Assembly: GCF_003334405.1 (NCBI RefSeq)
Contig: NZ_QOWM01000026.1
DNA from: Escherichia coli
GTDB lineage: Bacteria; Pseudomonadota; Gammaproteobacteria; Enterobacterales; Enterobacteriaceae
Strand: one strand, 5' to 3'
DNA length: 37,729 bases
The notes under the pieces were generated by a model that worked only from the letters and a program-made list of their open reading frames with translations, was not told where the DNA came from and did no database searches. Made by a program: the position numbers and the translations under genes. Positions 14,987 to 19,231 of this stretch are shown piece after piece (position 1 is the stretch's first letter; each line of letters starts with the position of its first letter).

Positions 14987-15077
14987 ATCTGCTTTATACT
15001 TGAGGCCGACGCCCTGGCGGTAAAGCAAAGACGATAAAAGCCCCCCAGGGATGGATATTCAAAAAAGAGTGAGTGAC

Positions 15078-16775
15078 ATGGAACCAAAAACAAAAAAACA
15101 GCGTTCGCTTTATATCCCTTACGCTGGCCCTGTACTGCTGGAATTTCCGTTGTTGAATAAAGGCAGTGCCTTCAGCATGGAAGAACGCCGTAACTTCAAC
15201 CTGCTGGGGTTACTGCCGGAAGTGGTCGAAACCATCGAAGAACAAGCGGAACGAGCATGGATCCAGTATCAGGGATTCAAAACCGAAATCGACAAACACA
15301 TCTACCTGCGTAACATCCAGGACACTAACGAAACCCTCTTCTACCGTCTGGTAAACAATCATCTTGATGAGATGATGCCTGTTATTTATACCCCAACCGT
15401 CGGCGCAGCCTGTGAGCGTTTTTCTGAGATCTACCGCCGTTCACGCGGCGTGTTTATCTCTTACCAGAACCGGCACAATATGGACGATATTCTGCAAAAC
15501 GTGCCGAACCATAATATTAAAGTGATTGTGGTGACTGACGGTGAACGCATTCTGGGGCTTGGTGACCAGGGCATCGGCGGGATGGGCATTCCGATCGGTA
15601 AACTGTCGCTCTATACCGCCTGTGGCGGCATCAGCCCGGCGTATACCCTTCCGGTGGTGCTGGATGTCGGAACGAACAACCAACAGCTGCTTAACGATCC
15701 GCTGTATATGGGCTGGCGTAATCCGCGTATCACTGACGACGAATACTATGAATTCGTTGATGAATTTATCCAGGCTGTGAAACAACGCTGGCCAGACGTG
15801 CTGTTGCAGTTTGAAGACTTTGCTCAAAAAAATGCGATGCCGTTACTTAACCGCTATCGCAATGAAATTTGTTCTTTTAACGATGACATTCAGGGCACTG
15901 CGGCGGTAACAGTCGGCACACTGATCGCAGCAAGCCGCGCGGCAGGTGGTCAGTTAAGCGAGAAAAAAATCGTCTTCCTTGGCGCAGGTTCAGCGGGATG
16001 CGGCATTGCCGAAATGATCATCTCCCAGACCCAGCGCGAAGGATTAAGCGAGGAAGCGGCGCGGCAGAAAGTCTTTATGGTCGATCGCTTTGGCTTGCTG
16101 ACTGACAAGATGCCGAACCTGCTGCCTTTCCAGACCAAACTGGTGCAGAAGCGCGAAAACCTCAGTGACTGGGATACCGACAGCGATGTGCTGTCACTGC
16201 TGGATGTGGTGCGCAATGTAAAACCAGATATTCTGATTGGCGTCTCAGGACAGACCGGGCTGTTTACGGAAGAGATCATCCGTGAGATGCATAAACACTG
16301 TCCGCGTCCGATCGTGATGCCGCTGTCTAACCCGACGTCACGCGTGGAAGCCACACCGCAGGACATTATCGCCTGGACCGAAGGTAACGCGCTGGTCGCC
16401 ACGGGCAGCCCGTTTAATCCAGTGGTATGGAAAGATAAAATCTACCCTATCGCCCAGTGTAACAACGCCTTTATTTTCCCGGGCATCGGCCTGGGTGTTA
16501 TTGCTTCCGGCGCGTCACGTATCACCGATGAGATGCTGATGTCGGCAAGTGAAACGCTGGCGCAGTATTCACCATTGGTGCTGAACGGCGAAGGTATGGT
16601 ACTGCCGGAACTGAAAGATATTCAGAAAGTCTCCCGCGCAATTGCGTTTGCGGTTGGCAAAATGGCGCAGCAGCAAGGCGTGGCGGTGAAAACCTCTGCC
16701 GAAGCCCTGCAACAGGCCATTGACGATAATTTCTGGCAAGCCGAATACCGCGACTACCGCCGTACCTCCATCTAA
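15078..16775 (+). CDS. maeA: NAD-dependent malic enzyme
   Basis: ORF track 574 aa from 15051; I use ATG 15078 ([14 protein letters not shown]..., 565 aa), the N-terminus I recall for MaeA/SfcA; start choice is uncertain by 9 codons. Confidence 0.9.
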
Positions 16776-16908: not shown

Positions 16909-17919
16909 ATGAAGGCTGCAGTTGTTACGAAGGATCATCATGTTGACGTTACGTATAAAACACTGCGCTCACTGAAACATGGCGAAGCCCTGCTGAAAAT
17001 GGAGTGTTGTGGTGTATGTCATACCGATCTTCATGTTAAGAATGGCGATTTTGGTGACAAAACCGGCGTAATTCTGGGCCATGAAGGCATCGGTGTGGTG
17101 GCAGAAGTGGGTCCAGGTGTCACCTCATTAAAACCAGGCGATCGTGCCAGCGTGGCGTGGTTCTACGAAGGATGCGGTCATTGCGAATACTGTAACAGTG
17201 GTAACGAAACGCTCTGCCGTTCAGTTAAAAATGCCGGATACAGCGTTGATGGCGGGATGGCGGAAGAGTGCATCGTGGTCGCCGATTACGCGGTAAAAGT
17301 GCCAGATGGTCTGGACTCGGCGGCGGCCAGCAGCATTACCTGTGCGGGAGTCACCACCTACAAAGCCGTTAAGCTGTCAAAAATTCGTCCAGGGCAGTGG
17401 ATTGCTATCTACGGTCTTGGCGGTCTGGGTAACCTCGCCCTGCAATACGCGAAGAATGTCTTTAACGCCAAAGTGATCGCCATTGATGTCAATGATGAGC
17501 AGTTAAAACTGGCAACCGAAATGGGCGCAGATTTAGCGATTAACTCACACACCGAAGACGCCGCCAAAATTGTGCAGGAGAAAACTGGTGGCGCTCACGC
17601 TGCGGTGGTAACAGCGGTAGCTAAAGCTGCGTTTAACTCGGCAGTTGATGCTGTCCGTGCAGGCGGTCGTGTTGTGGCTGTCGGTCTACCGCCGGAGTCT
17701 ATGAGCCTGGATATCCCACGTCTTGTGCTGGATGGTATTGAAGTGGTCGGTTCGCTGGTCGGCACGCGCCAGGATTTAACTGAAGCCTTCCAGTTTGCCG
17801 CCGAAGGTAAAGTGGTGCCGAAAGTCGCCCTGCGTCCGTTAGCGGACATCAACACCATCTTTACTGAGATGGAAGAAGGCAAAATCCGTGGCCGCATGGT
17901 GATTGATTTCCGTCACTAA
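16909..17919 (+). CDS. adhP: zinc-dependent alcohol dehydrogenase (propanol-preferring)
   Basis: ORF track 346 aa from 16879; I use ATG 16909 ([11 protein letters not shown]..., 336 aa), which has GGAGG 6 nt upstream. Confidence 0.92.
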
Positions 17920-17928
17920 GAGGCCTTT

Positions 17929-17956
17929 GCTGCGACTGCCATGTTCGGGTCGCAGC
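17929..17956 (+). other. stem-loop downstream of adhP
   Basis: 8-bp inverted repeat gctgcgac / gtcgcagc with 12-nt loop; no U-tract, so terminator function is uncertain. Confidence 0.3.
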
Positions 17957-18064
17957 ATCGCACACTCTCCAACATGAAATGGCTAAATGGATTATTGTTG
18001 CGTAGGAAGGAACAATAATGATAGTGTTCCCAGTGAAGGAACGCTACTGAGAGTAAAGACACTA

Positions 18065-18349
18065 ATGAAAATGGCCAATCATCCCCGCCCGGGGGACATT
18101 ATTCAGGAATCACTGGACGAACTTAATGTCAGCCTGCGCGAGTTTGCCAGAGCAATGGAAATTGCTCCCTCAACGGCAAGCCGATTGCTGACAGGAAAAG
18201 CAGCTTTGACGCCAGAAATGGCGATTAAACTTTCCGTGGTGATCGGCAGTTCGCCGCAAATGTGGCTGAATCTGCAAAACGCCTGGAGTCTGGCAGAGGC
18301 AGAAAAAACAGTGGATGTGTCGCGATTACGCCGTCTGGTTACGCAATAA
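18065..18349 (+). CDS. yddM: HigA-like antitoxin / XRE-family HTH DNA-binding protein
   Basis: ORF track 120 aa from 17987; I use ATG 18065 ([14 protein letters not shown]..., 94 aa); helix-turn-helix segment [21 protein letters not shown]. Confidence 0.8.
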
Positions 18350-18350
18350 A

Positions 18351-18378
18351 AAAATGGCACTTTATAAAGCGCCATTTA
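18351..18378. terminator. hairpin terminator after yddM (copy A of a duplicated hairpin)
   Basis: aaaatggcac tttataaa gcgccattt: stem with one mismatch, flanked by A- and T-tracts. Confidence 0.5.
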
Positions 18379-18401
18379 GAACTGATGACAAACGCAACAT
18401 T

Positions 18402-18430
18402 GCCTGATGCGCTACGCTTATCAGGCCTAC
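18402..18430. repeat. REP element
   Basis: gcctgatgcgctacgcttatcaggcctac, classic REP palindrome; a 29-mer about 80 percent identical recurs at 35611. Confidence 0.8.
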
Positions 18431-18467
18431 ACGTTCACTGCAATCTATTGGATTTGAAGGGTTTTCA

Positions 18468-18499
18468 TGCCGGATAAGGCGTTCACGCCGCATCCGGCA
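18468..18499. repeat. REP element (opposite orientation), forming a BIME with 18402
   Basis: tgccggataaggcgttcacgccgcatccggca; a copy differing by one base recurs at 35655. Confidence 0.85.
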
Positions 18500-18528
18500 T
18501 GAACAAAGCCTACGTTGTCTACAATATG

Positions 18529-18556
18529 AAAATGGCGCCTTTTACAGCGCCATTTT
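18529..18556. terminator. bidirectional hairpin terminator after fdnI (copy B)
   Basis: Perfect 10-bp stem aaaatggcgc / gcgccatttt with 8-nt loop; 22 nt beyond fdnI stop. Confidence 0.65.
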
Positions 18557-18577
18557 CAGCTTAAAGTTCAAAAGAGA

Positions 18578-19231
18578 TTATATCCCTTCTTCACTCTCTT
18601 TTTTCGCTTCTGCCTTCTCGATTTCACGATACCAGCGCGGATGGTGTTTCTTCGCCCAGCGACGACTTACCTTCCCTTCGATCATCCCTTTAATCGATCC
18701 TTTCACCCAAAATGCCATATACATATGGATCAGGATGGCGTGGATCAGGATGATACCCGCAGCCGCGTGGATCAGCAGGCTGTAGCGAACAACCTGCATC
18801 GGGAAGTACTGCGCAAAGTACGGACGCCAGATAATCACCCCGGTCACCAGCAGCACGAAAATCATGCTCATGATCGACCAGAACATCATCTTTTGCCCGG
18901 CGTTGTACTTACCGACATCCGCCACTTTATGCTCATTGCCTTTCAATACTTCGACAATGTTCAACAGCCACGGAATATCTTTCTTATCCGGGATGTTGTG
19001 ATGCACAAAACGCACAAACATAAACATCAGTGCGACGAAAATCGCAATGCCGAAGAACGGGTGCAAAATGCGTCCCATCTGCGGCGTACCGAAGGTTTGC
19101 GTCAGCCATTGCAGCGTCGGGAAGAAGAACGAAATCCCGGACAGCGCCACCAGGAAGAAGCAAATCACCACGGTCCAGTGACAGGCGCGATCAATAAATT
19201 TGGTGCGCACAATCATTTTCGACTTACTCAT
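18578..19231 (-). CDS. fdnI: formate dehydrogenase-N gamma subunit (cytochrome b556)
   Basis: ORF track 231 aa; I use internal ATG ([12 protein letters not shown]..., 217 aa) preceded by AGGAGG; start overlaps fdnH stop. Confidence 0.92.

Follow-up and report, generated by a model that had tools for sequence, protein, structure and literature searches.

YddM of Escherichia coli as the probable antitoxin of an ancestral chromosomal HigB/HigA module that has lost its toxin

yddM, a 94-codon gene lying between adhP and fdnI in Escherichia coli, is in our reading (probability about 0.88) the antitoxin gene left from an ancestral Rts1-type HigB/HigA module on the chromosome, whose toxin has been lost and whose promoter and operators now drive yddM itself. 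We analyzed the gene within a 37,729-nucleotide stretch of E. coli DNA, referred to below as the window. The locus corresponds to parE-2/higA-2 (TA20) of Bustamante and Vidal, with gene sizes that agree (279 and 285 nt), and the same work describes K-12 and HS as keeping only the antitoxin of this pair (PMC7232551). The orphan-antitoxin reading of K-12 yddM is correct but already published (PMC7232551), and our additions are incremental: the polarity given by outgroups, population frequencies, the lack of a toxin remnant, a conserved two-operator architecture, the ST131 frameshift, and a spacer divergence with defined bounds.

In the window, maeA (15051-16775) lies upstream of adhP (16909-17919, plus strand), which is separated from yddM (18065-18349, plus strand; 285 nt, 94 aa plus stop) by a spacer of exactly 145 bp (17920-18064), the length given in an earlier note on this DNA; fdnI and fdnH lie downstream of yddM on the minus strand. 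According to tblastn and annotation, the position of adhP is unchanged between toxin-plus and toxin-less genomes. The earlier note treated 17957-18349 as one interval, which comprises the spacer past a hairpin 3' of adhP together with the gene, the yddM start itself being at 18065. An in-frame ATG at 17987 would lengthen yddM to 120 aa (17987-18349), spanning its own operators; a family search with this extended product added nothing beyond the HigA match, and the start is probably unused, since the solved protein has 94 aa.

Among curated profiles, YddM matches NCBIfam TIGR02607, an equivalog named "HigA family addiction module antitoxin", at 93.7 bits against a curated cutoff of 47.7 and over profile positions 1-80 of 81, and its single helix-turn-helix domain matches Pfam HTH_3 (5e-9, residues 14-65). 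This bears out its earlier description as a 94-aa XRE/HigA-type helix-turn-helix protein, and RefSeq carries the gene under the same name, "HigA family addiction module antitoxin". YddM is identical to the protein of PDB 2ICP/2ICT, deposited as "antitoxin HigA" and cited in a review as YddM of E. coli CFT073 (PMC3968373). In the PDB comparison it also matches Rts1 HigA (E = 1e-18), and the solved structures nearest to it are those of HigA antitoxins and not of stand-alone regulators; PADLOC returned only weak generic helix-turn-helix matches. In K-12, tagged YddM gave reproducible ChIP-exo peaks from which a motif was obtained, making it a confirmed DNA binder (PMC6237786). The gene in the window does not lie directly 3' of a HigB (PF05015) gene, the arrangement found in 1331 E. 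coli genomes and nearly all outgroups, and the toxin gene being absent, the window does not hold a complete type II HigBA module with both partners intact. Nor does YddM fit a stand-alone XRE transcription factor, its outgroup orthologues being paired with HigB and its nearest solved relatives being HigA proteins.

The missing partner can be identified from strains that retain it. Many E. coli records carry, between adhP and yddM, a gene that PGAP names "type II toxin-antitoxin system RelE/ParE family toxin". In strains AGR6137 and GMF054 this gene has 279 nt and its last base is the first base of yddM, and in toxin-plus loci the end coordinate of the toxin equals the start coordinate of yddM. 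Its 92-aa product (WP_000605676.1) matches Pfam PF05015 (HigB-like toxin) over its full length (1.5e-17) and the structures of Rts1 HigB (4MCT at 8e-32; 4MCT, 4MCX, and 4PX8 at about 1e-31), with which it shares the C-terminal YILxYEDYH; PADLOC gave no match for it. The YddM protein, WP_000781370.1, is the same in toxin-carrying and toxin-less strains. Because the identical protein is paired with an intact toxin elsewhere, YddM would be expected to bind and neutralize its cognate HigB.

The toxin annotation just described came to light in a megablast of window positions 17700-18600 against 5426 complete E. coli genomes. Toxin DNA is present in 1331 of these genomes (24.5%), in exactly one place per genome and always adjoining yddM, and in none of the toxin-less genomes; the toxin-less spacer as found in the window occurs in 4089 (75%). 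Within the 1331, an ST131-type 1-nt frameshift is matched exactly in 545 genomes (10% of all 5426), which leaves about 786 (about 14.5%) as an upper bound for a full-length, unframeshifted toxin. The frameshift is a 1-nt deletion, CACCGACTC to CACCACTC, at about codon 33 (positions 601-878 of the locus L046 from E. coli ST131 strain 5392); PGAP flags the gene as "frameshifted", its translation is a 35-aa stub, and the YddM beside it is unaltered. Among the 4089 toxin-less genomes, about 1068 (about 20% of 5426) carry a variant about 87% identical to the window, a count defined by the 80-90% identity band with two places per record. Toxin-plus strains include UM146, JJ1886, PMV-1, ST131, and O127:H6, which we take to belong to phylogroup B2. 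One genome, E. coli O157:H7 TR01, has a mosaic spacer that is likewise 145 bp long (701-846 of locus L047), composed of a toxin-plus-type 5' part, a K-12-type left operator, and the last 47 nt of the toxin gene; with this single occurrence, it may reflect either a rare recombination event or faulty assembly.

Outgroups give this polymorphism a direction. Scanning one genome per species for YddM relatives, with tblastn of the toxin, YddM, AdhP, and FdnI on the loci recovered, we found the toxin directly 5' of yddM in E. albertii, two cryptic Escherichia lineages, and about 13 Citrobacter species, and also in Cedecea, Buttiauxella, Enterobacter, Pluralibacter, Chimaeribacter, and Erwinia. The gene fdnI lies 3' of yddM in Escherichia, Citrobacter, Pluralibacter, and Enterobacter, and adhP lies 5' of the module in Escherichia and two Citrobacter species. 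The order adhP-higB-yddM-fdnI is accordingly that of E. coli, E. albertii, cryptic Escherichia, and the two Citrobacter species, and higB-yddM-fdnI that of the other Citrobacter, Pluralibacter, and Enterobacter. Toxin and antitoxin diverge in parallel, with low dN/dS (0.04-0.12 between E. coli and Citrobacter). Together, the toxin 5' of yddM in outgroups and the parallel divergence show that the intact pair is ancestral at the adhP-fdnI site and that the toxin-less state of the window is derived. Relatives thus carry a toxin at this position, among them the 1331 E. coli genomes, E. albertii, cryptic Escherichia, Citrobacter, and other genera, and YddM does not group with stand-alone regulators; both results support the earlier note, which had read the gene as an orphan antitoxin and proposed the synteny comparison.

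The family has repeatedly lost HigB while keeping HigA. The antitoxin is intact beside a toxin with an internal deletion in Citrobacter sp. FP75, a toxin with a frameshifting deletion in C. portucalensis A60, a frameshifted toxin in Xenorhabdus lircayensis, and toxins cut down to their last ~29 codons in X. khoisanae and last ~15 codons in Chimaeribacter californicus (independent decay at loci L008, L014, L028, L029, and L031). The truncated toxins keep the 3' end, which holds the ribosome-binding site of the antitoxin.

In the window, no remnant of the toxin can be detected. As the earlier note had stated, no toxin-sized open reading frame lies upstream of yddM: the longest frames in the spacer, of 25 aa (plus strand) and 48 aa (minus strand), matched no family. 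A search of 17900-18075 for a toxin remnant gave a six-frame protein local alignment score of 24 against a shuffle mean of 26 and a nucleotide score of 14 against a shuffle mean of 16, and tblastn of the toxin over the whole 37.7-kb window, which took in the suggested search between adhP and yddM, returned nothing. The proposal that short broken frames in the spacer were debris of a decayed toxin, exemplified by a frame with its ATG at 17974, within a 25-aa open reading frame at 17941-18018, must be rejected, since the comparison with the toxin stays at shuffle level and the spacer aligns instead with the promoter and operator region 5' of the toxin in other loci. What stands of that proposal is that a toxin present in relatives has been lost from the locus; it was not eroded in place but cleanly removed. 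The sequence TAATG (18063-18067, plus strand), through whose overlapping stop and start codons higB and yddM are coupled in intact modules, is kept and forms the right-hand edge of the deletion. As the spacer aligns upstream of the toxin elsewhere and TAATG is retained, the toxin open reading frame appears to have been removed from about its ribosome-binding region to its last few codons. A possible vestige of the last toxin codons, GAC..CACTAATG at 18057-18067 with a 4-nt loss, was noticed by eye and has no statistical support.

The part of the spacer that differs from the toxin-plus alleles measures 108 bp (17957-18064, plus strand) and would represent the former higB promoter, operator, and 5' untranslated region, now directly 5' of yddM. 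Across 20 loci from nine genera, the window included, the invariant columns read GTTSC ... GSAACA ... GTTCC ... GGAAC, which are four half-sites forming two inverted repeats, TGTTSC-N7-GGAAC, 10 nt apart. These are the predicted operators O1 (17996-18014, plus strand; TGTTGC-N7-GGAACA), which overlaps a putative -35 element TTGCGT placed by alignment (17998-18003, plus strand), and O2 (18025-18043, plus strand; TGTTCC-N7-GGAACG); the half-sites of both are invariant. A putative -10 element, GATAGT (18020-18025, plus strand), lies between O1 and O2 and is aligned with TATACT in Chimaeribacter. A scan for the sigma-70 consensus found no promoter in the spacer of either allele, so the promoter is placed by conservation and analogy only; genomic SELEX has placed a site for RpoD holoenzyme in the interval from adhP to yddM (PMC3946193). 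On the Rts1 plasmid, HigA dimers bind two 21-bp inverted-repeat operators overlapping the -35 and -10 elements, and HigA alone represses the promoter Phig no less effectively than the HigB-HigA complex does (PMC12266136). By analogy with O1 and O2 of Phig, we infer that the two inverted repeats 5' of yddM may act as operators (PMC12266136).

Upstream, the differing segment begins at a hairpin 3' of adhP found by inverted-repeat search (17928-17957, plus strand), with 9-bp arms TGCTGCGAC / GTCGCAGCA and a 12-nt loop. Alignment and a difference map place this hairpin as the last stretch shared with the toxin-plus alleles, with the diverged cassette starting directly after it: the continuation is CTGTTTTG in toxin-plus alleles and CATCGCAC in the window (17928-17965). 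A short T-run after the hairpin was lost together with a 51-bp length difference, and a terminator scan left the hairpin unflagged in both alleles because of its 12-nt loop.

The history of this segment is more complicated than a deletion. The window spacer (17957-18064, compared with positions 1757-1905 of L001) lacks 51 bp found in toxin-plus alleles, and over the 75 nt 5' of the first open reading frame it matches E. coli toxin-plus alleles at 46 of 64 aligned positions and Citrobacter or Pluralibacter at 50-51 of 62-64, compared with 73 of 75 between E. coli toxin-plus alleles and E. albertii. By sequence comparison, the toxin-less spacer is no simple recent deletion derivative of an E. 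coli toxin-plus allele. Recombination may have brought in a diverged toxin-less cassette; the alternative is that local rearrangements at the inverted repeats sped up the change. The import would have had homologous recombination replace higB and its promoter with a diverged, already toxin-less cassette from an unsampled or ancient enterobacterial lineage, with crossovers in the adhP hairpin and the conserved 5' end of yddM, and the allele then spreading through most E. coli phylogroups. In favor of this, the differences stop abruptly at both ends of 17957-18064: the flanking DNA is 95% identical or better, and in the first 100 nt of yddM nothing separates the window from four toxin-plus alleles (three from E. 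coli, one from cryptic Escherichia). The spacer itself resembles Citrobacter or Pluralibacter at least as much as it does E. coli toxin-plus alleles, and within it only the functional operator half-sites are conserved, as expected from long neutral divergence. Yet no donor has emerged: the other species representatives with at least 85% YddM identity all have the toxin or recognizable debris, a distant blastn search against plasmids gave chromosomal fragments only, and E. coli genomes hold no second, paralogous copy of the spacer, the extra places found being the inverted segment of an O111-type allele. Local mutation at inverted repeats, exemplified by an 11-bp inversion and a 30-bp deletion at this very site, could also have accelerated change. 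We regard the import as possible, with odds clearly against it; it concerns the history of the locus only and leaves its identity unaffected. More tentative still is a wider proposal, in which the 108-bp spacer would be a xenologous or very old antitoxin-only allele that replaced higB and its promoter by recombination and swept most E. coli phylogroups; YddM, autorepressed, would persist as a protection from incoming HigB toxins and as a minor regulator. Replacement would then have run in one direction, because a recipient can survive the displacement of an intact module by an antitoxin-only allele.

Both local rearrangements are seen among present-day alleles. The 11-bp segment GCGTAGGAAGG (18000-18010) sits between perfect 9-bp inverted repeats (17991-17999 and 18011-18019) and is inverted in the O111-type allele of the roughly 1068 genomes mentioned above (loci L048 and L052). 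As the inverted segment lies inside O1, the palindrome is kept and its imperfect half-site has moved from the left to the right. Three sampled genomes (L049, L053, and L055) share a 30-bp deletion bounded by direct repeats, GGAAGGAAC and TGAAGGAAC; equivalent to window positions 18014-18043, it removes the putative -10 element and half of each operator.

The coding sequence of yddM shows a different pattern of variation. Pairwise comparison of the window gene with E. coli and E. albertii alleles gave 0 nonsynonymous and 4-13 synonymous differences, so that in the alleles sampled E. coli and E. albertii share one and the same protein, and omega against Citrobacter is 0.04-0.12. In 11 further toxin-less alleles, 11 sites differ from the window, all of them synonymous and none missense. 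These synonymous-only differences indicate that yddM has been maintained after the loss of the toxin. Rare loss-of-function alleles show that this selection is not absolute: strain E300010 (L053) combines the 30-bp promoter deletion with a nonsense codon, R40*, in yddM, and strain 2017.17.03CC (L056) has a 12-nt in-frame deletion in yddM together with a truncated adhP, both coding changes being singletons.

These occasional nonsense, in-frame deletion, and promoter-deletion alleles are what would be expected if toxin-less yddM were a functionless leftover whose decay is still to come, and no complemented phenotype is known for the gene, the hypersensitivity of the Keio mutant to epetraborole having failed complementation. 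We nevertheless consider such a leftover improbable, given that 11 of 11 differing sites in the toxin-less alleles are synonymous, that the protein is unchanged as far as E. albertii, that the operator half-sites are intact in the window, and that the tagged protein yields ChIP-exo peaks in K-12. Far less credible is the idea that YddM was always a stand-alone XRE regulator, with higB inserted 5' of it later in some B2-type E. coli. The toxin is missing from three quarters of complete E. coli genomes, and YddM has been treated as an orphan transcription factor in K-12 studies, both of which would suit this idea, but outgroups with a close YddM (E. albertii, cryptic Escherichia, about 13 Citrobacter, and five to six further genera) have the toxin directly 5' with the same 1-nt stop/start overlap, the two proteins diverge in parallel, and the window retains the operator pair that precedes the toxin elsewhere. 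Recent acquisition by the outgroups from B2 E. coli is argued against by the dS of their modules, 0.5-2. We give as little weight to a K-12 partner toxin for YddM that lies unannotated nearby or is encoded elsewhere. A 90-aa antisense open reading frame (18103-18375, minus strand) does overlap yddM and was once annotated as c1908 in CFT073; against this, neither it nor the spacer frames match any NCBIfam or PADLOC family, toxin DNA occupies a single place per genome, beside yddM, and is lacking in toxin-less genomes, and tblastn of the toxin over the window is empty.

The reading of yddM as the antitoxin of a former HigB/HigA module suggests the following course of events. The common ancestor of Escherichia and Citrobacter would have carried the module between adhP and fdnI. 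The lineage of the window would then have lost the 279-nt higB open reading frame, with a junction at or just 5' of the old TAATG overlap, so that the module promoter and its palindromic operators O1 (17996-18014) and O2 (18025-18043) would now drive yddM directly. A YddM dimer at O1 and O2 would repress its own promoter without toxin, like free HigA at Rts1 Phig, and by that analogy autorepression is probable. YddM may have been kept for regulating a few further sites, for neutralizing incoming HigB-type toxins, or for both. Its most likely role is that of an autorepressed orphan antitoxin or a minor regulator; the earlier suggestion of a solo helix-turn-helix protein retained as a transcription factor fits the published ChIP-exo binding (PMC6237786) and the purely synonymous variation. 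HigB relatives are encoded on 454 plasmids, and the true plasmid matches are all at most 57% identical, which weakens the case for anti-addiction against plasmid HigB and leaves cross-protection uncertain.

Among described systems, the closest is HigA of CFT073 (PDB 2ICT/2ICP; parE-2/higA-2, TA20, in AIEC NRG857c), an identical 94-aa protein at the same chromosomal site; in CFT073 and NRG857c a HigB-like toxin gene lies 5' of the antitoxin, whereas the window has no such gene and carries a diverged variant of the promoter region. HigB-HigA of the Proteus vulgaris plasmid Rts1 shares the toxin-first order, a 92-aa toxin with a C-terminal YEDYH, and two inverted-repeat operators around -35 and -10 (PMC12266136), which at yddM are predicted. 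It differs in being plasmid-borne as opposed to chromosomal, in having the toxin that the window lacks, and in the length of its HigA (104 aa against 94 aa for YddM), and the half-site sequence at the yddM locus is deduced from conservation only. K-12 contains a second HigA-family protein that is an orphan there, YbaQ (PDB 2EBY), which matches YddM at 6e-9; it differs from YddM in its locus and its length of 113 aa and is a distant paralogue. YbaQ is a DNA binder confirmed by ChIP-exo (PMC6237786), and AIEC NRG857c has its partner parE-1, which in CFT073 is reduced to a pseudogene (PMC7232551). HigBA (YgjN/YgjM) of K-12 belongs to the same named family and also has its toxin gene first, but it represents a different subfamily, absent from the PDB matches of YddM at E <= 1e-3, and shows the reverse pattern, the module being intact in K-12 and orphaned in B2 strains (PMC7232551).

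For annotation, K-12 YddM is best described as an orphan HigA antitoxin instead of a regulator of unknown origin, with a cognate HigB that seems intact in no more than ~15% of complete E. coli genomes. Studies of orphan transcription factors in K-12 could take the promoter of yddM itself, with its two predicted operators, as their starting point. The clean deletion described here, the ST131 frameshift, the internal deletions in Citrobacter, and the 5' truncations in Xenorhabdus and Chimaeribacter form a natural series of toxin loss with the antitoxin kept, which could aid studies of toxin-antitoxin decay; they do not overturn current understanding.

Some further features surround the gene. A table of the MazF regulon gives yddM the value 6, apparently a leader length after cleavage (PMC5001579), and an ACA lies at 18059-18061 (within 18057-18064). 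Just past the yddM stop lies a hairpin, AAATGGCAC...GCGCCATTT (18352-18377), one of two copies flanking a REP block; an Rfam search of 17850-18650 gave sub-threshold REP-related matches only (naRNA4, ES036), 3' of yddM. An indel polymorphism of ~180 bp between yddM and fdnI (18344-18525) holds the REP-like elements, is independent of the toxin state, and is flanked by two copies of one terminator-like hairpin, that at 18352-18377 and another at ~18528-18553. Strain MLI108K3 carries an IS200/IS605 tnpA inserted between yddM and fdnI (829-1287 of locus L055).
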